This document shows positions 1,577 through 64,000 of a DNA stretch of 64,000 nt, one piece after another. Source of the DNA: Nitrosomonadales bacterium (lineage in GTDB: Bacteria > Pseudomonadota > Gammaproteobacteria > Burkholderiales > Gallionellaceae). Both the position numbers and the translations under genes were made by a program. Under the pieces are notes generated by a model. The model was given only the letters and a program-made list of their open reading frames with translations. It was not told where the DNA came from and ran no database searches. The stretch covers positions 1,573-65,572 of the forward strand of contig JANYJE010000015.1 in NCBI GenBank assembly GCA_025408405.1, given 5' to 3'. Each line of letters begins with the position of its first letter. Positions within the stretch are counted from its first letter, which is position 1.

Positions 1577-2848
1577 TTATCGCGACTCAGGCGCCCTGCC
1601 AGTTCTCCATAAATACGCGCCTATCATCACTCCGACCACGCTCAGAGCCACGACATAATGCGCCGGCGCCAGCGCGTCCGAGCTCAACAGCATGCTGACT
1701 GCCACAGGCGTCAGCCCGCCGAAAACGGCATACGCCACGTTGTAGGAAAACGACAAGCCGCTGAATCGCACCGCAGACGGGAAGGCCTTGACTGCCACGC
1801 TGGGAACCACACCAATCACCCCAACAAAGAAACCACACAGCGCATACAACTCATTGATGCGCTGCGGCGCTAGCGACATCTGCTGGTAAAACAGTGCAGA
1901 TGTCGCGCCCAGCATTACGCAGCCTATCATCAACACGCGCCCCGGGCCAAAACGATCAGCCAGCGCACCGAACACGATGCAACCCAGACTCAGGCACAGT
2001 GTCGCCATGCTGTTGGCCTGCAGGGTGGTCGCCGCTGCAATGCCGTAGAGTTTTTGCAGCAGCGGTGGCGTCATTAAAATCATCACTATGATCGCCGCAG
2101 ACAGCAGCCAGGTCAGCAGCATGGTCAGCACCACCGCCGGCCGGTGTGCACGCACCACCGTTTTCAACGGCAATTCACTGGCCAATTCCTGCCTGGCCTG
2201 CATCTCCTTGAACACGGGTGTTTCATGCAACCACTGGCGCAGCCACACCGACACCAGCCCGAAAATGCCGCCGATGATAAAAGGGATGCGCCAGCCTTCT
2301 GCCAGCACTTCGGCTGGCGTGTACATTTTATTGATGACTGTCGCCACCAGAGACCCCAGCAGTATGCCGGCGGTCAGCCCCGCCGTCAGCACTCCGCAGG
2401 CGAAGCCGATATGGCGCGCAGGCACATGCTCGGACACAAATACCCAGGCGCCAGGCACCTCACCGCCAATCGCCGCCCCTTGCAGCAGGCGCAAGGCCAG
2501 CAATGACAACGGCGCCCAGATACCGATGACGGCATAGGTAGGCAACAGGCCTATCGCCAGTGTCGGCACGGACATCAGGAATATGCTCAGCATGAACATG
2601 CGCTTGCGCCCCAGCAAGTCGCCGAAATGCGCCATGACGATGCCGCCCAGCGGGCGCGCCAGATAGCCCGCAGCGAATATCCCGAAAGTCTGCAGCTGCC
2701 GCAGCCAGTCGGGCATATCGTGCGGAAAAAACAACTGCCCGATGACGACCGCAAAAAACACGAAAATAATGAAGTCATAGAATTCCAGCGCCCCGCCAAG
2801 TGCAGCCAGCAATAAAGTCCGATAATCCTGGCGCGTCAATCTCCGCAT
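1577..2848 (-). CDS. MFS transporter, metabolite:H+ symporter (ProP-like) type
   Basis: 423 aa and about 12 hydrophobic segments. The MFS loop motif GDLLGRKR is present and the N-terminus reads GGALEFYDF. Confidence 0.8.
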   Translation of the reverse strand: MRRLTRQDYRTLLLAALGGALEFYDFIIFVFFAVVIGQLFFPHDMPDWLRQLQTFGIFAAGYLARPLGGIVMAHFGDLLGRKRMFMLSIFLMSVPTLAIGLLPTYAVIGIWAPLSLLALRLLQGAAIGGEVPGAWVFVSEHVPARHIGFACGVLTAGLTAGILLGSLVATVINKMYTPAEVLAEGWRIPFIIGGIFGLVSVWLRQWLHETPVFKEMQARQELASELPLKTVVRAHRPAVVLTMLLTWLLSAAIIVMILMTPPLLQKLYGIAAATTLQANSMATLCLSLGCIVFGALADRFGPGRVLMIGCVMLGATSALFYQQMSLAPQRINELYALCGFFVGVIGVVPSVAVKAFPSAVRFSGLSFSYNVAYAVFGGLTPVAVSMLLSSDALAPAHYVVALSVVGVMIGAYLWRTGRAPESR

Positions 2849-3036
2849 GTTTCTCTACCCTTAAATTTAGGAGGCCCGCGATTCTAGCCAATGCGATGAT
2901 GCTTAGCCATCTTGCCGAACGTTACAGCGCGGTCAAATGAGCTGCACTTGCGAAAAACAGGCTATTCGTGGATAATCTGCCCCCTTATGCGTGCGTACAC
3001 CCTGCCGCACCAATTTTTGATGCTAGGAAAACCAAG

Positions 3037-3255
3037 ATGAAAACCGATATTCACCCGCAATACACCGAGATCGCCGTGAACTGCAGCTGTGGCAACGCGT
3101 TCAAGACCAAGTCCACCATGGGCAAGCCTCTGCACGTTGAAGTTTGCTCGGCATGCCACCCGTTCTACACCGGCACACAGAAGATTGTAGATACCGCTGG
3201 CCGCATTGAGAAGTTCAACAAGAAATACAGCAAGGGCGCAGCCGCTGCCGCTTAA
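3037..3255 (+). CDS. rpmE: 50S ribosomal protein L31 (Zn-binding form)
   Basis: [12 protein letters not shown]...CSC...[10 protein letters not shown]. An AGGAAA SD lies about 7 nt upstream of the ATG at 3037. The track ORF start at 2968 is an upstream extension. Confidence 0.95.
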
Positions 3256-3274
3256 TGGCTCGTTGCATCTGACC

Positions 3275-3306
3275 AAAAAAGGCAGCAGACGCTGCCTTTT
3301 TTTGTT
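3275..3306 (+). terminator. rho-independent terminator of rpmE
   Basis: AAAAAAGGCAGC-AGAC-GCTGCCTTTTTTT hairpin followed by a T-run, 20 nt after the stop codon. Confidence 0.75.
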
Positions 3307-3469
3307 TGCTCTGAACCCGCTACACTTACCCAAGGCGGAGAAACACGGGCAAAGCTAGTTGACTTGCCTGAACGCTGCTCAATCTTGCTTGCTTCAGCAT
3401 CAAGGTTAAAATGCTAAAAGCGACATCCATGCACCCATCATGTCCATAGTATAAGGCTGCTTCTATCAC

Positions 3470-5104
3470 ATGTTTGCTTACTCCACCCTTGCAGAACCAG
3501 CGATGACGCCTACCAAGACGTTGTTCTTCGCGCTGCTCTGCGCCACCTGGATAGGCACAGGCCTGATCGGCCACGACCCGTGGAAACCCGATGAGGTCTA
3601 CAGTTTCGGCATCGTGTTTCAGATGCTGCAAAGTGGTGACTGGCTGGTTCCTGCACTGGCGGGCGAGCCGTTTATGGACAAGCCGCCGCTGTTCTATATC
3701 ACTGCGGCGGCTTTTGCCAAGCTGCTCTCGCCGCTGCTGCCGCTGCATGATGGCGCGCGCCTGGCCAGCGGCTTCTACAACGCCCTCACCCTGATGTTTA
3801 TTGGCTTTGCCGGGCGCGAACTGTTTGGCAAGGGGCGCGGCTGGGCGGCAGCTGTCATTCTGATAGGCTGCCTCGGCATGCTGGTGCGCACCCACTTCCT
3901 CGTTACCGATCTTGCCCTGCTGACGGGCTGTGCCATGATGCTTTATGGCTACGCGCTCAGCCTGCGCCGCACCCTGCTGCCGGGCCTGTTGATCGGCACC
4001 GGGATAGGCATCGGCTTCCTGTCCAAAGGTTTTATCGCGCCGATACTGTTTATTTCCATCAGCGCCACCCTGCTGTTTTTCCGCGCTTGGCGCACGCGCG
4101 CATTTTTCACCACCCTCGCCATCGCAGTCGTGTGCGCCTTGCCCTGGCTCACCCTCTGGCCTTATCTGCTGTACCAGCGCTCACCGCAGCTGTTTATGGA
4201 GTGGGCGTGGAAGCTGAATATCGGGCACTGGCTCGACTACGCACGCCGCGGCCAATACGATGAAGTTTTCTACTACGTAAAAATCCTGCCCTGGTTTGCC
4301 TGGCCGGCCTTGCCGATGGGTGCGTGGGCGGTGTGGCATGCACGCAAAAAAGTACTGCAACAGCCAGAATTCCAGCTGTTGCTGGCGACCTTCCTGGTGA
4401 TGCTGGCAACCCTGAGCATCGTGCCGAATATCGAGGAAATATTTGCGCTGCCGATGCTGCTGCCGCTATCCCTGCTGGCCACCGCCTCGCTCTCCAGCTT
4501 GCGCCGCGGCGCTGCGAATGCGCTGGACTGGTTCGGCATCATGACTTTTGGTTTTTTTGCCATCCTGCTGTGGTCGGGTTGGCTTAACCTGTATCTGAAC
4601 AGCGACTCGCGCATCACTCACTGGCTGAAAAACTACCAGCCCGAAGTGGAACCCCACTTCCAGCTCCTCCCCTTCAGTCTCGCCGTCGCTGCCACGCTGC
4701 TGTGGATCGTGCTGGTATGGCGCGTGGGCCGCTCCATCCGCCGTTCCGTCATCAACTGGGCCATAGGCGTTACCCTGCTGTGGGTGCTGGTGATGACCCT
4801 GTGGTTGCCGTGGCTGGACAGCAGCAAGAGCTATCGCAGCATGGTCGAGTCGCTGACAGAATCGCTGCCGGAAAAACGCGACTGCATCGCCAGCCGCTAT
4901 CTGGGTGACGGACAGAAAGCCATGCTGCACTACTTCGGAAATATCGTGACACGCGACGGTGGCGAGCGCTCATGCAACTTGCTGCTGACGCAAGGCAACC
5001 TGTCCAGATCCGATCAGGAACAAGGCCATTGGACTACCGTATGGGAAGGCGGCCGCCGTGGCGAGAAAGACGAGCGCTACTACCTGTATCAGCGCCAGTA
5101 CTAA
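3470..5104 (+). CDS. ArnT/PMT-like (GT39/GT83-type) membrane glycosyltransferase
   Basis: 544-aa polytopic protein. The N-terminal region reads GHDPWKPDEVYSFGIVFQML...DKPPLFY, as in undecaprenyl-phosphate-sugar transferases. The start could instead be the ATG at 3503. Confidence 0.65.
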   Translation: MFAYSTLAEPAMTPTKTLFFALLCATWIGTGLIGHDPWKPDEVYSFGIVFQMLQSGDWLVPALAGEPFMDKPPLFYITAAAFAKLLSPLLPLHDGARLASGFYNALTLMFIGFAGRELFGKGRGWAAAVILIGCLGMLVRTHFLVTDLALLTGCAMMLYGYALSLRRTLLPGLLIGTGIGIGFLSKGFIAPILFISISATLLFFRAWRTRAFFTTLAIAVVCALPWLTLWPYLLYQRSPQLFMEWAWKLNIGHWLDYARRGQYDEVFYYVKILPWFAWPALPMGAWAVWHARKKVLQQPEFQLLLATFLVMLATLSIVPNIEEIFALPMLLPLSLLATASLSSLRRGAANALDWFGIMTFGFFAILLWSGWLNLYLNSDSRITHWLKNYQPEVEPHFQLLPFSLAVAATLLWIVLVWRVGRSIRRSVINWAIGVTLLWVLVMTLWLPWLDSSKSYRSMVESLTESLPEKRDCIASRYLGDGQKAMLHYFGNIVTRDGGERSCNLLLTQGNLSRSDQEQGHWTTVWEGGRRGEKDERYYLYQRQY

Positions 5105-5107
5105 ACT

Positions 5108-5500
5108 TTAGTTCTCCAGCAGCTTCCTCAAGTTGTGCAAATCCTGCTCCACCAGCTGCCCGTCTCTGGCGTAGTCTGCATCCGACATCCCGGGCTGGCG
5201 CAACAGGGTAAAAATGACCGTGCTGCCGCCGGCATTGGGCAACACGCGCATGGGCACGCAGATTTCAACACCAGGCGCAGGGGTCACATAATGGTCCAGT
5301 ACGCCGAATATGTTTTTTTCTGCGAAGCGGATATGCATTTCACCCTGCGCCGTTTGCACCAGCCATCCCGCGTCGGTCAGGCTCACCGACTGGCATAGCC
5401 CGCCTGCCCACTGCGGCAGATTCTGCGGATTCACCACATACTCGTAAACCTTGCCCGGAGGACAATCGATGTTGATGCTTAGCGTCTGCACCTGACGCAT
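5108..5500 (-). CDS. SRPBCC (polyketide cyclase/AHSA1-like) superfamily protein
   Basis: 130 aa starting MRQVQTLSINIDCPPGKVYEYVVNPQNLPQW. The start at 5500 is chosen because it lies 4 nt after the aroC stop; the longer track ORF would overlap aroC. Confidence 0.6.
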   Translation of the reverse strand: MRQVQTLSINIDCPPGKVYEYVVNPQNLPQWAGGLCQSVSLTDAGWLVQTAQGEMHIRFAEKNIFGVLDHYVTPAPGVEICVPMRVLPNAGGSTVIFTLLRQPGMSDADYARDGQLVEQDLHNLRKLLEN

Positions 5501-5504
5501 TGCG

Positions 5505-6611
5505 TTATACCGCTTTGCCGGGGATCTTCGGTGTGGGGCACACCACATCCGCATTCTGTGCGCGCTGGCGCAAGGCGTGCTCGATCAACACCAGCGCCAG
5601 CATGGCCTCGGCGATAGGCGTGGCGCGGATGCCAACACACGGGTCGTGACGGCCATGCGTTTCCACCATGGCCGGATTGCCCTGCTTGTCGATGGAGCGA
5701 CGCGGAATGCGGATGCTCGAAGTAGGCTTGATCGCCACATGGGCCACAATCTCCTGCCCGGTGGAAATGCCGCCGAGCACGCCGCCTGCATGGTTGGACA
5801 AGAAGCCCTGCGGCGTCAGCTCATCGCCGTGCTCGCTGCCGCGCTGGGTCACGCAGCCGAAGCCCGCGCCGATCTCCACCCCCTTGACCGCATTGATGCC
5901 CATCATGGCATAGGCGATGTCGGCATCCAGCCGGTCGTACACCGGCTCGCCCCAGCCTACCGGCACGTTCTCCGCCACCACGGTGAGTTTGGCGCCGATG
6001 GAATCGCCCGACTTGCGCAACGCATCCATGTAGTCCTCAAGCTGGCCGATATAGCCCGCATCCGCCACAAAAAAACTGTTGCCATCCTCCGTGAGGTCGC
6101 CCCAGCTCTTGAACGGCACCACGATCTCGCCCAGCTGCGCCATGTAGCCGTGGATCAGCACGCCATAGCGCTCGTGCAGCCACTTCTTGGCGATGGCGCC
6201 GGCCGCCACGCGCACCGCGGTTTCGCGTGCCGAAGAGCGCCCGCCGCCGCGCGGATCACGAATGCCGTATTTCTGCCAGTAGGTGTAGTCGGCATGCCCC
6301 GGGCGAAAGCTCTCTGCGATATCGCCGTAGTCCTTGCTGCGCTGGTCTTCGTTGCGTATCAAAAGCGCGATAGGCGTGCCGGTGGTCTTGCCCTCGTACA
6401 CGCCCGACAGAATTTCCACTGCGTCGGATTCGCGCCGTTGTGTAACGTGGCGCGAGGTGCCAGGCTTGCGCCGATCCAGCTCGTGCTGGATATACTCTGC
6501 GGAAATTTCCATCCCCGGCGGGCAGCCGTCCACCACGCAGCCGATGGCCGGCCCGTGCGACTCACCGAACGAAGTAACGCTGAACAAATTGCCGAATATA
6601 TTTCCAGACAT
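5505..6611 (-). CDS. aroC: chorismate synthase
   Basis: 368 aa. Motifs [14 protein letters not shown] and [11 protein letters not shown] are present. Confidence 0.95.
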
Positions 6612-8998: not shown

Positions 8999-12604
<3,606 letters not shown>

Positions 12605-37374: not shown

Positions 37375-37694
37375 CTAGCGCATCAATTTCATTAGATTGA
37401 AACTTAATGATGAGTACATTTTTTAAAGAGGGAACTGCAGGAAACCGAGAGGAGGGGCCAACGGCTTATCTAGCAATCCCGCCGCCATAGAATTTGTAGA
37501 TTCCTTAGACCGGTAACTTTGCGCCCCGGCCTTTCGGTCGGTTTGCCTTTATCAGATTTGATGCCATTTCAGCGCAGTCTGGCGGACTGACTGAAAATTT
37601 AGAGTCGATATCCTATACCTGAGTTTGCGTTTGTCAACAAAAAAACGCGGCAAGCACTTTGAAGAAGCCAGTGATTTCGTGATAAAGTCCACCC

Positions 37695-37865
37695 TGCTTC
37701 AAGGTGCCGAAGGCGCAAATGCCCTTCGGTTAAACGGGAAACAGGTGAAGAGCCTGTGCTGCCCCCGCAACGGTAAGCAAGTGTGGACGTGTCATTCAGC
37801 CACTGTGAGCAATCATGGGAAGGCGATGCGTTTAGTCTTGTGAGCCCGGATACCGGCCTTGAATC
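37695..37865 (+). promoter_or_regulatory. cobalamin (B12) riboswitch aptamer
   Basis: Conserved core strings are present: GGTGCC...AAACGGGAAACAGGTGAAGAGCCTGTGCTGCCCCCGCAACGGTAAG, CAGCCACTG...GGGAAGGC, and the B12-box-like AGCCCGGATACCGGCC. P1 can form between CTTCAAGG (37696-37703) and CCTTGAA (37857-37863). The element lies upstream of btuB. Confidence 0.85.
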
Positions 37866-38033
37866 AGGAACCTGGAACCACAGGTTTCACAGGTCAGGAA
37901 ATGCTGCGGGTGGCGCATGGATGGCAGGTGTTTGGCCGGTTCCCGGGCGCTCCTCCTCCCTAATAAGCCTGTCGCATTTCCTGTGTTTGCACGTTCCAAC
38001 GGGGCACCTTGGAACTCACTCAGGAAAATCTTA

Positions 38034-50079: not shown

Positions 50080-50272
50080 AGTAATAGGTTTGCACCCTGC
50101 AGTGCTCGTCAGGCTCATAATTCTTTGAACCAATAAGCTTTGCTTAGGTCGCGCCCCTTAATGTTGCTGTTGTGCGCATCCCTTGCGGATGTACCTGATG
50201 CGACCGGGAACCGGCCCTCTTGAACCCAGGTTCAAGATATTGAGTCAACGGCACAGGCGGGGGGCTTTATTC
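50080..50272 (+). ncRNA. ssrS: 6S RNA (ssrS) candidate
   Basis: It occupies the conserved position immediately downstream of zapA. The string CUCUUGAACCCAGGUUCAAGA matches the E. coli 6S string CCUUGAACCAAGGGUUCAAGG. The 5' GCACCCUGCAGUGCUCGUCAGGCUCA can pair with the 3' UGAGUCAACGGCACAGGCGGGG around a central bubble. The ends are approximate. Confidence 0.6.
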
Positions 50273-59561: not shown

Positions 59562-61415
59562 TCATTTTCTTTCCAGCTGCGACACGTCGCGCACCGCGCC
59601 CTTGTCCGCGCTGGTGGTCATCGCCGCATAAGCGCGCAAGGCAGCCGACACTACACGTTCGCGATTTACGGGCTTCCATGCCAGCGCCCCCTTCTCTTCC
59701 ATCAGCAGGCGGCGGTGCGCCAGCTCGCTGTCGGCAATCGCCAGACGAATCGTGCGCTTGGGGATGTCGATCTCGATCGGATCGTTTTCTTGCACCAGGC
59801 CTATCGCGCCGCCTTCGGCCGCCTCGGGTGAGGCGTGGCCTATCGACAGACCCGAGGTGCCGCCGGAGAAGCGCCCGTCGGTCAGCAGCGCGCAGACCTT
59901 GCCCATGCCCTTGGATTTCAGATAGGTGGTCGGGTACAGCATCTCCTGCATGCCTGGCCCGCCCTTGGGGCCTTCGTAGCGGATCACCACCACGTCGCCC
60001 GCCACGATCTTGTCGGCAAGTATGGCCTCGACTGCGCTGTCCTGGCTCTCAAAGATGCGCGCCCGCCCGTGGAATTTCAGGATGCTGGCATCCACACCGG
60101 CGGTCTTTACGATACAGCCGTTCTCGGCGATGTTGCCGTACAGCACGGCCAGCCCCCCGTCCTGCGAATAGGCGTGTTGCTTGTCGCGGATGCAGCCGTT
60201 GGCGCGGTCGTCATCCAGCGTGGGGTAACGCATGGATTGCGAAAATGCGATGGTCGTCGCGATCCCTCCGGGGGCTGCACGGAAAAATGTTTTTACCGCT
60301 TCGTCGCTGCTGCGCTTGATGTCGTATTTTTCCAGCGCCGCACCCAGGGTCTTGCTGTGCACGGTAGGCAAATCGCAATGCAACAGTCCCGCACGATCCA
60401 GCTCGCCCAGGATGCCCATCACACCGCCCGCGCGATGCACATCTTCCATGTGGTATTGCTGCGAGCTCGGCGCCACCTTGGACAGGTGCGGCACATGGCG
60501 CGACAGGCGGTCGATATCCTGCATGGTGAAATCCACCCCGCCTTCGCGCGCGGCGGCGAGCAGATGCAGCACGGTGTTGGTAGAGCCGCCCATGGCGATG
60601 TCCAGATTCATCGCGTTCTCGAACGCCTTGAAGGTGGCGATGCTGCGCGGCAGCACGCTGGCATCGTCCCCTTCGTAATAGCGCCGCGCCAGATTCACCA
60701 CCAGGCGCCCTGCCTCCAGAAACAGCTCCTTGCGATCGGCGTGCGTCGCCAGGAGTGAGCCATTGCCCGGCAGCGACAGGCCCAATGCCTCGGTGAGGCA
60801 GTTCATCGAGTTGGCGGTAAACATGCCGGAGCAGGAACCGCAGGTGGGGCAGGCGGAACGTTCCAGCTCGTTCACCTCGGCGTCGCTGACGCTGCTGTCG
60901 GCGGCGGACACCATCGCATCCACCAGATCCAGCATGATGGTCTTGCCGCCCCAGTTGACCTTGCCCGCTTCCATCGGCCCGCCCGACACAAACACCACCG
61001 GAATATTCAGGCGCATCGCGGCGAGCAGCATGCCCGGGGTGATCTTGTCGCAGTTGGAAATGCACACCAGCGCATCGGCGCAGTGCGCATTCACCATGTA
61101 TTCCACGCTGTCCGCGATCAGCTCGCGTGAAGGCAACGAATACAGCATGCCGCCGTGCCCCATGGCGATACCGTCATCCACCGCGATGGTATTGAACTCC
61201 TTGGCCACCCCGCCCGCCCGCTCGATCTCGCGCGCCACCAGCTGCCCCATGTCTTTCAGGTGCACATGCCCCGGCACGAACTGGGTGAAGGAATTGGCAA
61301 TGGCGATGATGGGCTTGTCGAAGTCGCCGTCTTTCATCCCGGTGGCACGCCACAAGGCGCGAGCACCGGCCATGTTGCGACCGTGGGTGGTAGTGCGTGA
61401 ACGATAGGCTGGCAT
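59562..61415 (-). CDS. ilvD: dihydroxy-acid dehydratase
   Basis: 617 aa with [33 protein letters not shown], and TDGRFSGG. Confidence 0.95.
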
Positions 61416-61724
61416 GATGCTGCTTCCAAAATATTAGTGAAGCGGTAATTCTAAACTATGGTGGCGGGGAACGTCTTGGCTTTGGGATTGGAATGGCGAA
61501 GGTATTGCAGACTATTGCTACGCACATGAGTATCGCGTAAGGTTCAGCAAGATTCGGTTTTTAAAGTTTTTTTGCAGTGGTGCTTGTATCCGGAAAATCA
61601 GGGGGTGCCATAATTTCACCTCAAATAAAAACAAGGCATTGCGTGAAGGATGCCAGATTGCACACCTCGAAGGTGCCTTTCCCGGCATTTTTTAGGGTGT
61701 CTACTTTACGTTGGGCCTTTGGAG

Positions 61725-62264
61725 ATGAATGTGGATCTTTCTACACTGAAGGACTGGTTGGTTCCGGTCTCAACTTTTGTAACTCTGATAACAGCCTCGG
61801 TGGGCGGCTGGATGTCCTTGCGAGAGTATCGACTCAAAGTTCAAGCCGAAACGCGCCTTGCCAAGAGCACGGAACTTGAAGCCGATGTGAAGTTGCTCAA
61901 GTTATTTACAGAAATCATGAGCATCGCCCACGCGCGTGGCCAAACACAGCTTTCCGAAAAGTTGATTGAAAAGCTTCTGTCACCCGAAACCATGAAAGAA
62001 CTTGGGGTGACCATAGCCAATCTGCGCCCAGTGCTTGAGAGTGCGGTAATTTCACACCCTGTAGGTATCGCAGCCCAGGATGCAGCCATTGCGGCTATTT
62101 GGGCATTGGGCATCAAACATGAGATCTTGCAGCCAGTCGCGATTCAGGCGCTTACTTCACTGACCGGATTCAAGGAAAAAGTTGCGCGACCTTATCTTGA
62201 GGACTTGAAATCAAAATACAGTGGTAAAGAGCTCGCCAATGCAGAACATGAGAAGCAGGCCTAA
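61725..62264 (+). CDS. hypothetical protein (cassette-borne orphan with an N-terminal TM helix)
   Basis: About 179 aa from the ATG at 61725; a GTG at 61731 is also possible. One hydrophobic helix (LVPVSTFVTLITASVGGWM) is followed by a helical soluble part. Its TAA stop lies inside GCCTAAC of the following attC-like site. I recognise no family. Confidence 0.5.
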   Translation: MNVDLSTLKDWLVPVSTFVTLITASVGGWMSLREYRLKVQAETRLAKSTELEADVKLLKLFTEIMSIAHARGQTQLSEKLIEKLLSPETMKELGVTIANLRPVLESAVISHPVGIAAQDAAIAAIWALGIKHEILQPVAIQALTSLTGFKEKVARPYLEDLKSKYSGKELANAEHEKQA

Positions 62265-62331
62265 CCCTTCGGTCAAGCGGGACGCTCCGCCGGCAAGCCG
62301 GCTGCGCGCCCCTTACCTCCAACGTTGAGGC
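62259..62331 (+). repeat. attC-like recombination site A
   Basis: GCCTAAC...(imperfect palindrome)...AACGTTGAGGC. The ends fit the RYYYAAC / GTTRRRY-like core pattern, and the stop codon of the upstream ORF is embedded in the left core. Confidence 0.5.
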
Positions 62332-62485
62332 TGTAGAAAAACTCAAAATGAAAAAATTGTGTTTGTCATGATTACAAAGCGACCTCTCGGAAAGCTCTGT
62401 ATCGAACGATCTCACATCAGGGAGGGGTTTGATGCCCCCGGAAAATCACACCTTCCGACCCATCATTTGGTTTTTCTACAGCCTC
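62327..62485. repeat. 159-bp repeat module 'X1' bounded by perfect 16-bp inverted repeats
   Basis: GAGGCTGTAGAAAAAC (62327-42) and GTTTTTCTACAGCCTC (62470-85) are perfect inverted repeats. The module is flanked by GTT on both sides. Its ~120-bp core is repeated at ~63376-63495, and a degenerate copy lies at ~61590-61716. Confidence 0.55.
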
Positions 62486-62507
62486 GTTATGCATAGGATA
62501 AGAATCC

Positions 62508-62594
62508 GTGGCGATTTTTGACATCTTCTCAAAGCGGCAGAAAAAACTACGGGGCGAGATACCGGATGTCCACAATTCCATCAACCCGGACTAG
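62508..62594 (+). pseudogene. 5' remnant of a cassette gene (28 codons)
   Basis: From a GTG it reads VAIFDIFSKRQKKLRGEIPDV, then an out-of-context HNSINPD and a stop. The N-terminal string resembles the start of a longer conserved family (possibly AbiJ-N-terminal-domain-like, from memory). An AGGA lies upstream. Confidence 0.3.
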
Positions 62595-62619
62595 CTTACA
62601 GCGGGCTTCGCCCGCCTCT

Positions 62620-62735
62620 AGCCAACCCGGAGACCTCAGGGTCAGATACCTTACATTTGACATGTCAAATGTAAGGCCCTCGCTTTTCCCTACGCCGACA
62701 AGCCGGCTTCGCGCTCCTCAACTCAAACGTTGGAC
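62620..62735 (+). repeat. attC-like site B containing a 28-bp perfect palindrome
   Basis: AGCCAAC...CCTTACATTTGACATGTCAAATGTAAGG (62649-62676)...GACAAGCCGGCTTCGCGCTCCTCAACTCAAACGTTGGAC. The 3' half aligns with the 3' half of site A. Confidence 0.4.
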
Positions 62736-62738
62736 GTC

Positions 62739-62993
62739 TCAATAATGAAAGCGCAACTGGGCAATCATCAATGCATCATTCTCGACGCGATACACCATGC
62801 GATGCTCATCTGTGATTCGGCGTGACCAAAACCCCGAGAGCGCATGCTGCAACGGTTCGGGCTTGCCCACTCCGGTGAAAGGCTCACGCTGTGTCTCCCG
62901 TATTAGCTTGTTGATTCGATCAACCATGCGCTTGTCTTGCTTCTGCCAATACAGGTAGTCTTCCCATGCCTCGTCAGCGAAAATCAGTTTCAC
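62739..62993 (-). CDS. yoeB: YoeB toxin (type II TA, ribosome-dependent mRNA interferase)
   Basis: 84 aa. It is near-collinear with E. coli YoeB: MKLIFADEAWEDYLYWQ...GKPEPLQHALSGFWSRRITDEHRMVYRV...RFHY. Confidence 0.9.
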   Translation of the reverse strand: MKLIFADEAWEDYLYWQKQDKRMVDRINKLIRETQREPFTGVGKPEPLQHALSGFWSRRITDEHRMVYRVENDALMIAQLRFHY

Positions 62994-63241
62994 TTGGACA
63001 GCTTCCGCTCAACGCCTTTGCCAGAGTTCAGTTGTGCGGCAGCCGCGAGAAGGCGCTTCGCGTTGGCGGGTGTGCGCAACAGGTAGGCAGTCTCCTCCAG
63101 CGCCTTGTAGTCTTCGAGGGAGAGCATCACGACGGACTGTTCTCCGTTGCGAGTAATAATCAAAGCTTCGTGGTCGTCACAAACGCGATCCATGGCGCTG
63201 GCGAGATTCGCGCGAACGGTGGTATAGCTAATTGCATCCAT
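62990..63241 (-). CDS. yefM: YefM antitoxin (Phd/YefM family)
   Basis: 83 aa with MDAISYTTVRANLASAMDRVCDDHEALIITRNG...SLEDYKALEETAYLL. An AAGGAG SD is present and its stop overlaps the yoeB start. Confidence 0.9.
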   Translation of the reverse strand: MDAISYTTVRANLASAMDRVCDDHEALIITRNGEQSVVMLSLEDYKALEETAYLLRTPANAKRLLAAAAQLNSGKGVERKLSK

Positions 63242-63250
63242 AGCGGGGCT

Positions 63251-63280
63251 CCTTGTATATGTACGTGTTACTGTACGCCG
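63251..63280 (-). promoter_or_regulatory. candidate yefM-yoeB operator/promoter with GTAC-core repeats
   Basis: The + strand reads CCTTGTATATGTACGTGTTACTGTACGCCG, immediately upstream of yefM. It contains two TGTAC cores about 12 bp apart, as in the E. coli yefM operator (from memory). Confidence 0.4.
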
Positions 63281-63311
63281 CAAATAGCAAGCTGTCCAGT
63301 GCAACGGCGCC

Positions 63312-63502
63312 GCCCAACCCTGCATTCGAGCGCTCAGAACCTCAGGGTCACGTACCTCAGCTCAAATGGTGTCTGCTATGAATACAAAACGACCTCTCAA
63401 AACGAGCTGTATTCGACGATCTCACTTCGGGGAGGGGTTGCGTGACCCCGTAAAAATGCACCTGCCAACCCCTTGTCTAGTTTTTCTACAGCGTCGTTAG
63501 GC
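63312..63502 (+). repeat. attC-like site C plus repeat module 'X2'
   Basis: GCCCAAC (63312-18)...ACCTCAGGGTCA... followed by the X core (63376-63495), ending ...GTTTTTCTACAGCGTC-GTTAGGC (63496-63502). X2 lacks the left 16-bp arm seen in X1. Confidence 0.4.
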
Positions 63503-63541
63503 GTCTTGATCCCCAGGCCTTCCTGTAGCGCGTATGGTCGC

Positions 63542-63569
63542 TTGACAAGCGTACGCAATGGCGTACTAT
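63542..63569 (+). promoter_or_regulatory. sigma70-like promoter with an embedded GCGTAC direct repeat (candidate antitoxin operator)
   Basis: TTGACA-N16-TACTAT. The spacer contains GCGTAC-GCAATG-GCGTAC. An AAGGAG SD lies 6 nt before the ATG at 63595. Confidence 0.5.
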
Positions 63570-63594
63570 TTAGGCTTCTTTGAAGGAGCATGAA

Positions 63595-63837
63595 ATGAAC
63601 ACACTTACCGCCAGCGAAGCTCGCGCAAATCTGTACCGGCTCATTGATCAAACAGTAGAGTCTCATGAGCCAATCATCATTTCCGGAAAACGCAGCAGTG
63701 CCGTGCTGCTTTCCGCAGAAGACTGGAGCGCAATTCAAGAAACATTGTACCTGCTAGCCGTGCCCGGCATGCGCGAGTCCATCAAGACTGGCATGGCCGA
63801 ACCCCTCGCAAAAAGCTCAAAGGCGCCTAAGTGGTGA
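63595..63837 (+). CDS. Phd/YefM-family antitoxin
   Basis: 80 aa with MNTLTASEARANLYRLIDQTVESHEPIIISGKRSSAVLLSAEDWSAIQETLYLL. Confidence 0.85.
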   Translation: MNTLTASEARANLYRLIDQTVESHEPIIISGKRSSAVLLSAEDWSAIQETLYLLAVPGMRESIKTGMAEPLAKSSKAPKW

Positions 63838-64000
63838 GTTGGGAAGTTGTTTATGCAAAGCAAGCAATGAAGGACGCAAAGAAGCTTGCTGCAAGTGGCC
63901 TTAAATCAAAGGCACAAGAACTGCTTGCGGTTCTTGCCAGCGACCCATTTCAAAATCCACCACCCTTCGAAAAGTTGGTCGGTGATCTTGCTGGCGCATA
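63834..64000 (+). CDS. Txe/YoeB-family toxin, 5' part (runs off the window end)
   Basis: The GTG start overlaps the antitoxin stop (GTGA). The translation is VSWEVVYAKQAMKDAKKLAASGLKSKAQELLAVLASDPFQNPPPFEKLVGDLAGA, typical of the N-terminus of this family. Confidence 0.7.
   Translation, partial: MSWEVVYAKQAMKDAKKLAASGLKSKAQELLAVLASDPFQNPPPFEKLVGDLAGA

Follow-up and report, generated by a model that had tools for sequence, protein, structure and literature searches.

Introduction

In Xanthomonas, the integron integrase gene intI is located downstream of ilvD (PMC12444791). A different association with integrons is known for the IS1111-attC group of insertion sequences (ISPa21, ISKpn4 and ISPst6), which target one end of attC sites (PMC11187229, PMC11616780) and are described as having a DEDD transposase, subterminal repeats of 11-13 bp, extensions of 7 nt and 3 nt, and a seekRNA region (PMC11187229). 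In this report we examine a region that can be compared with both. It forms the last 2.4 kb of a 64-kb stretch of contig JANYJE010000015.1 from a Nitrosomonadales bacterium, hereafter called the window, and all statements on this genome refer to the window. The region, which begins beside ilvD, is very probably what remains of a chromosomal integron after deletion of its integrase gene, and it contains two copies of a short non-coding element, termed X, that lie at attC sites.

A cassette array without an integrase gene had been proposed for this position from the sequence letters alone. The proposal is borne out in three independent ways: by the score of one attC site against a covariance model, by homology breakpoints that coincide exactly with cassette ends, and by an attI-like sequence at the start of the array.

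Results

Cassette 1 and its attC site

The features that carry this conclusion are listed here, where L numbers denote comparison loci and R1 is the covariance model described below.

61672-61712, + strand: attI-like remnant, identified by alignment with the attI of the intI-linked loci L085, L092, L093 and L095
61711-62324, + strand: cassette 1 (ORF1 plus attC), delimited by BLAST homology breakpoints
61725-62264, + strand: ORF1, an open reading frame (ORF) for a cassette-borne protein of 179 aa with 144 homologues
62259-62332, + strand: attC site A, a full-length R1 match (30.9 bits, E 4.3e-5) supported by its fold

The limits of cassette 1 are evident from its relatives. The BLAST match to Nitrosomonas loci L081-L084 covers exactly positions 61710-62265 at 87.6% DNA identity, and therefore extends from the G of GTTGGGC (family GTTRGGC) to the C of GCCTAAC (family RYYYAAC). 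Beyond RYYYAAC the Nitrosomonas unit continues into a different attC of 60 nt, and it sits behind a succinyl-CoA-ligase-like gene, which is a different neighbourhood from that of the window. The ORF1 relative in the Nitrosomonas metagenome-assembled genomes (MAGs) is a cluster-mate of P0001, a protein 99% identical to ORF1. Another homologue (P0002, 82% identical) is encoded by approximately the sixth cassette of the complete integron L085, an intI-linked array with canonical attCs, and here the homology of the window spans 61728-62327. Cassettes of the ORF1 type are also found as solitary units beside core genes in L082 and L087. Occurring as it does in differing contexts, with bounds at G|TT and at the attC, cassette 1 is, as judged by these comparisons of sequence, a real and intact mobile cassette of a widely spread family. 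ORF1 itself matched no Pfam or NCBIfam family. As predicted, its stop codon lies within the first attC core, with the TAA at 62262-62264 inside GCCTAAC at 62259-62265.

The model R1 was built from the conserved, trimmed arms of nine attCs, none of them from the window; seven belong to the L085 array beside a TIGR02249 integrase, and one each to L096 and L099. When the window was searched with filters off, site A was the sole match with E<1 in 64 kb. Untrained attCs adjacent to intI in L093 and L095 score 28.6-46.3 bits, the aac(6')-Ib attC from a clinical integron reaches 26.9 bits, and the ilvD neighbourhoods of 80 species, 1.27 Mb in all, contain no full-length match. Folding of the top strand gives site A a canonical architecture of 73 nt, in which the R'' and R' cores are paired and are followed by an unpaired spacer and an L stem whose 5' arm carries bulged C, C and A residues (G, G and T on the bottom strand). 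Site A thus combines inverse cores, a spacer, extrahelical bases and a position at the 3' end of an ORF with its model score. Two other approaches were abandoned. A hand-written attC descriptor gave 0.86 matches per shuffle and missed site A, and RNAalifold, run on full-length attCs aligned with MAFFT, detected the R box alone, so trimmed arms were used instead.

In L082, a gene for a 176-aa IS200-like/REP-associated tyrosine transposase (10600-11260) directly follows the attC of the ORF1 cassette, and is flanked by inverted palindromes that contain GTAG.

An attI-like remnant and a missing integrase gene

In the complete integron L085, the sequence GACGCTTTGTAAAGCGTCTTTTAGGGGGTCTACTTCGC|GTT directly precedes the first cassette. 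The motif is also present in L092, L093 and L095, whose IntI proteins are 72-86% identical to that of L085. Positions 61672-61712 of the window read GGTGCCTTTCCCGGCATTTTTTAGGGTGTCTACTTTAC|GTT, and the block GTCTACTTTACGTT within them is identical to the L095 attI at 13 of 14 positions. We evaluated this resemblance by a fixed-register test, wherein the 30 nt 5' of each GTT on both strands were compared with two attI references. The GTT at 61710 ranks first among 1619 sites with 20 matches in 30 positions, and the runner-up reaches 16. The remnant ends at the crossover G(61710)|TT, which is the start of cassette 1. A putative attI is therefore situated just 5' of the first cassette, exactly where the orientation of the array had led the original prediction to place it.

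The gene for the integrase, which normally lies ~160 bp to the left of such an attI, is missing. Searches by tblastn with two probes, IntI1 (class 1; an approximate sequence) and the IntI of L085 (TIGR02249, 480.9 bits), found neither intI nor a fragment of it in the 64 kb (best match E 9.7). The same probes detect intI in L085, L092-L095 and L045. The absence of a tyrosine-recombinase ORF noted earlier thus stands. Upstream of ~61670 there is no similarity to the interval between attI and intI of complete integrons. Because the similarity stops at this point, the platform appears to have been truncated ~40 bp from the crossover point. Approximately 255 bp of unrelated sequence separate the attI remnant from the start codon of ilvD. 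The cassette promoter Pc normally resides in or near intI. A consensus scan found no sigma-70-like site at 61416-61725; the only two sites found both belong to toxin-antitoxin (TA) gene pairs.

In L082 (Nitrosomonas MAG QPHG01000003), an attI-like leader at 9955-9990 ranks first among 627 GTT sites and no integrase is present, such that the solitary ORF1 cassette behind a core gene resembles another, independent integron ‘scar’ that begins with the same cassette. In L092, an IS110-family (DEDD) transposase element at 2300-3700 lies within the attI of an otherwise intact platform, where the attI motif is interrupted at ...GCCTACT|AATGAC.

Decayed attC sites and the location of element X

To the right of site A, the following features were identified.

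62327-62485, + strand: X1, a non-coding copy of X of 159 bp with perfect 16-bp terminal inverted repeats (GAGGCTGTAGAAAAAC) and a fold z score of -4.46
62487-62729, + strand: cassette remnant 2, comprising a truncated ORF of 28 codons (62508-62594) and degenerate site B (62620-62735)
63312-63502, + strand: site C, a destroyed attC consisting of R'' GCCCAAC (63312-63318), a short spacer, X2 (63327-63495) and R' GTTAGGC (63496-63502)

All of the core-like motifs listed by the original prediction are present: GCCTAAC at 62259-62265, GTTGAGG at 62324, AGCCAAC at 62620, GTTGGAC at 62729, GCCCAAC at 63312, GTTAGGC at 63496, GTTGGGC at 61710 and GTTATGC at 62486. The reading of the paired motifs as ends of attC sites holds for site A, by model and by fold, and fails for sites B and C, which R1 does not recognise. 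Neither B nor C gave an R1 match above 8.8 bits, even when only 2.6 kb were searched. Site B (62620-62735) resembles an attC only in its 3' half (62690-62735), which shares 84% identity with its counterpart in site A. In site C (63312-63502) the outer cores are complementary, X2 occupies the place where the L box belongs, and the fold is no better than those of shuffled sequences (z +0.48). Both sites accordingly lack the set of attC characters found in site A.

Two repeat families underlie these resemblances. Repeat D2 (43 nt, 84% identity) links site A with site B through their 3' halves and agrees with the alignment proposed earlier. Repeat D1 (139 nt, 76% identity), which aligns 62354-62492 with 63364-63502, had been grasped only in part. 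What had been taken for the bodies of long structured attCs, at 62327-62485 and 63327-63495, is a separate inverted-repeat element located at the GTT of an attC R' box. Likewise GTTGAGG, which had been read as an attC core, consists of GTT and the first four bases of X. X1 is flanked by GTT at 62324-62326 and GTT at 62486-62488, and thus lies at the crossover point of site A. In X2 the left repeat is degenerate and the right junction resembles those of the family; the two copies are 76% identical over 139 nt.

Other sequences in this region recur as well. Degenerate site B contains a perfect palindrome of 28 bp with 14-bp arms, CCTTACATTTGACA|TGTCAAATGTAAGG, at 62649-62676. The sequence ACCTCAGGGTCA..TACCT to the left of this palindrome is repeated at 63339-63357 in site C, and CGTACCTCAGCT recurs in L099.

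Element X lies at a fixed position in attC sites

Pattern and peptide searches of metagenomic, Logan and IMG/VR contigs yielded further copies of X in L091, L096/L097, L098, L099, L100 and L107. All eight left junctions read cGTT|GA(G/A)GCTGTAGAAAAA, and all eight right junctions read CTACA..TC|GTT followed by A(T/G/A)(G/A)C. In eight of nine independent contexts the left flank of X is the 3' half of a canonical attC, and R1 matches the X-bearing attCs of L099, L100 and L096. Removal of X together with one GTT restores an R' that is complementary to R'', as seen for GCCTAAC/GTTATGC in the window and for GACTAAC/GTTAGGC in L099. The attC-linked copies share a single orientation relative to the cassette, which for eight independent insertions has P ~0.008 if orientation were random. 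The conserved part of X is its 16-bp terminal inverted repeat, and the inward extension of this repeat varies by subfamily yet remains complementary. The interiors are strongly diverged in L098 and unrelated in L107, where X lies in a phage-like contig outside any attC. When viral contigs were scanned for the left end of X, 36 matches were obtained, of which one has a matching right end and the others are at the level expected by chance.

The long repeats (site A with X1, and site C) could be read instead as genuine composite attCs in which X forms a hairpin branch, which is essentially how they had been seen from the sequence at the outset. The complementary outer boxes (GCCTAAC/GTTATGC and GCCCAAC/GTTAGGC) suit this view, but site C lacks an L box, is not recognised by R1 and folds no better than shuffled sequences. 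An X hairpin could protrude from a three-way junction, and its terminal-stem extension preserves pairing despite changes on both sides; however, the same types of attC exist without X, as evident when the filled ORF1 attC of the window is compared with its empty counterpart in L085 (a8), and the filled site of L096 with L100 2275-2340. Many different attCs do carry X at the same place and in the same orientation, yet L100 carries a tandem X-GTT-X (X8-GTT-X9), and the copy in L107 lies outside any attC. We therefore consider composite attCs unlikely, and X is, on the strength of its junctions, a non-autonomous element directed at the cGTT crossover triplet in the R' boxes of attCs.

L098 has a short array that contains two different attC-targeting elements: in addition to the X-bearing attC, a neighbouring attC holds a group II intron (1480-1793, - strand; Rfam RF02005, 79 bits).

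Toxin-antitoxin cargo

The remaining cargo of the array consists of two TA pairs.

62739-63241, - strand: yoeB (62739-62993, 84 aa) and yefM (62990-63241, 83 aa), with matches to PF06769 (4.8e-40), PF02604 (8.3e-25), TIGR02116 and NF008499
63595-64000, + strand: a second yefM (63595-63837; 2.4e-19) and a partial Txe/YoeB toxin gene starting at 63834 (TIGR02116, 2.7e-09)

Of the whole array, only this second pair is seen to extend beyond the window. In each pair the antitoxin and toxin genes share 4 nt, and both pairs have the characters of type II YefM/YoeB systems. Sigma-70-like promoters are located at 63298-63270 (- strand) for the inverted pair and at 63542-63569 (+ strand) for the second. 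Family matches and the promoter scan thus uphold the description of two YefM/YoeB-type pairs, one of them inverted with a promoter of its own.

Genomic setting

The neighbour of the array is a core gene.

59562-61415, - strand: ilvD (dihydroxy-acid dehydratase, 617 aa), identified as an ORF with tblastn relatives, its 5' end towards the array

At least 600 relatives of this ilvD were found by tblastn, the closest of which, at 84% identity, are in betaproteobacterial genomes. The GC content is 0.59-0.65 over ilvD and 0.47-0.55 past 61500, in line with the AT-rich shift noticed beforehand. The array starts ~295 bp from the ilvD start codon. It faces the 5' end of the gene, and the host is a betaproteobacterium. 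No attC was found adjoining ilvD in any of 80 related species. For this reason, the sharing of ilvD as a neighbour with the Xanthomonas integrons is probably a coincidence.

A C-terminal fragment of an integron integrase gene occurs at 2-295 of L045, a zetaproteobacterial contig (Mariprofundaceae MAG) in which ilvD lies at 3842-5689 on the same strand. The fragment is 3.5 kb upstream of ilvD, and this proximity is probably coincidental. Elsewhere in the window, a c-di-GMP-I riboswitch (37469-37557, - strand, 74 bits) and a cobalamin riboswitch (37685-37875, + strand, 123 bits) lie on opposite strands with ~130 bp between them, an arrangement suggestive of divergent regulated operons. A 6S RNA gene (50091-50267, + strand, 64 bits) and a tRNA-Pro(CGG) gene (398-474, - strand) are ordinary housekeeping RNAs.

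Discussion

Probable decay of a chromosomal integron

We infer that deletion of the integrase gene would have left only the inner ~40 bp of attI, followed directly by a cassette array that points rightward. Cassette 1 appears to have survived intact. The units after it would have decayed, leaving half an attC beside a truncated ORF, and two yefM-yoeB pairs of which the first is inverted. Element X would have struck two attCs, in each case at the G|TT crossover triplet of R' and in one orientation; the attC that received X2 would have lost its central part after the insertion, and X1 would have remained intact. Without an integrase in cis, the array should be static unless an IntI encoded elsewhere in the genome acts on it, and only site A still appears competent as a recombination substrate. 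Known TA cassettes of other sedentary arrays stabilise them against deletion, and the TA pairs of this array, each with its own promoter, probably do the same for this region.

Several points weigh against this reconstruction. The similarity to attI is short (20 of 30 positions and a shared imperfect palindrome) and is missed by blastn alone. Model R1 is home-made, with a shortened calibration and partial sensitivity, such that it misses the attC of L082 and that of blaGES. The window is free of an integrase but holds a single scoring attC, one fewer than a CALIN (cluster of attC sites lacking an integron integrase; two or more attCs and no integrase) should have. The 64-kb limit leaves room for an integrase gene further to the right or elsewhere in the genome.

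It is quite unlikely that the region is an ordinary CALIN, whose cassettes landed by ilvD through secondary-site recombination and never had an attI or intI of their own, with the likeness to attI arising by chance. IntI does insert cassettes at GTT-type secondary sites, neither intI nor an intI pseudogene fragment is present in the window, and solitary ORF1 cassettes reside beside core genes in L082 and L087. The leader of the first cassette is nevertheless the best of all 1619 candidates for attI similarity, including the 13/14 agreement of its GTCTACTTTACGTT block with L095, and the solitary Nitrosomonas cassette also has an attI-like leader (first of 627).

A complete and active integron with its integrase outside the window is very improbable. 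The window does end inside the array, but the order of ORF and R''...R' on the + strand, together with the attI-like site, puts the platform at the left end, where only the 255 bp of unrelated sequence separate attI from ilvD; moreover, two of the three attC sites are destroyed.

Generic, genome-wide palindromes of the repetitive extragenic palindromic (REP) or bacterial interspersed mosaic element (BIME) type beside an unrelated TA islet, with no integron at all, can be dismissed as scarcely credible despite the palindrome at 62649-62676 and the occurrence of TA modules outside integrons, because the region has an attC model match, cassette-exact breakpoints and homology to attI and because the repeats, which had been considered as possible REPs from the start, have no copies in the remaining 61 kb (by patterns with <=3 mismatches and by BLAST, and likewise for the perfect 16-bp inverted repeat at 62327-62342 and 62470-62485) and no Rfam match at E<=1 in 61300-64000, and are therefore local rather than genome-wide as far as the window shows.

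Integrase-deleted chromosomal integrons are objects of a known kind, and this region would offer a further example of their demise, in which attI and the TA cassettes outlast the integrase and the attCs erode. Where an attI ‘scar’ is left, a decayed platform can be told from a stray cluster of attCs. Two unrelated genomes without intI both have the ORF1 cassette right after an attI-like leader, which is a hint that such relics are common.

What kind of element is X?

X is possibly a new attC-targeting element. Tentatively, and with more doubt than confidence, we suggest that it represents a previously undescribed family of attC parasites, which would consist of non-coding hairpins of ~160 bp with termini GAGGCTGTAGAAAAA(C) that are site- and orientation-specific at cGTT. 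Copies in L091, L096, L099, L100 and L098 have no Rfam match, blastn finds no match to X in plasmids, and a string search of the literature with the terminal sequences returned nothing relevant. No autonomous partner of X was found.

Two identities for X were considered and rejected. A frame of ~45 aa is open in five of eight copies, and peptide searches retrieve translations of other copies of X, but substitutions are spread evenly over the codon positions (0.31/0.34/0.33) and two copies have stops or a frameshift, such that X is not a gene. Nor is X a canonical cassette, as R1 finds no attC inside X or across the natural X-GTT-X junction of L100. The lack of an attC of its own, whether internal or at an X-X junction, makes the canonical IntI cassette mechanism unlikely for X. 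A circular form of X would place AAC/GTT in a triloop, which also counts against this reading.

How X moves can be narrowed by its geometry. Mobilization by the integron integrase through a non-canonical substrate is possible, as is mobilization by a site-specific enzyme of the IS110/IS1111-like or HUH-like type. Site-specific systems of the latter kinds (IS110/IS1111-like, or HUH single-strand) fit the geometry better than does a miniature inverted-repeat transposable element (MITE) of the DDE type with a 3-bp duplication, which would explain the inverted repeats but not easily the strict target and orientation. It is also possible that X derives from an IS1111-attC element by deletion. Since X comes to lie between the L box and R', cassette recombination may be disabled or re-wired by it. 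If X is a dedicated attC-targeting element, then software for finding attCs could miscall or miss sites in environmental arrays, and X would constitute a third class of integron parasite beside the IS1111-attC elements and the group IIC-attC introns.

Comparison with known systems

Like the Xanthomonas integrons at ilvD (PMC12444791; Gillings et al. 2005 as summarised there), the region is a chromosomal array beside ilvD with a lost or decayed integrase. It also shares with them cassettes of unknown function together with TA modules, and attCs that follow the ORFs (PMC12444791). In contrast to the Xanthomonas arrays, this one belongs to a betaproteobacterium, lies at the 5' end of ilvD and has no intI at all, not even as a pseudogene. 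The CALIN concept (PMC12444791) likewise covers cassettes with attCs and no integrase nearby. The region differs from a CALIN by its recognisable attI remnant, which the definition does not require, and by having only one intact attC in view.

Element X can be set beside two kinds of mobile element. Like MITEs, it is small, non-coding and present in multiple copies, with terminal inverted repeats, a short flanking direct repeat, and conserved ends around interiors that are diverged or unrelated (X6, X11). Its strict cGTT target and its orientation specificity are unusual for MITEs of the DDE type. Like the IS1111-attC elements, X occupies a fixed position at the R' end of attCs in one orientation, has inverted repeats near its ends, and shows an apparent short duplication that may belong to the element. 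One plasmid carrying GES-5 was examined and did not contain ISPa21. Relative to the published description of IS1111-attC elements, X is set apart by its length of ~160 bp and by the lack of a DEDD transposase. Moreover, its repeats are 16 bp long and terminal, with at most 3-4 nt outside them, whereas those of the IS1111-attC elements are subterminal, 11-13 bp long, and bear the 7-nt and 3-nt extensions. X therefore falls outside the IS1111-attC group as presently defined, even though both strike attCs at the same end.

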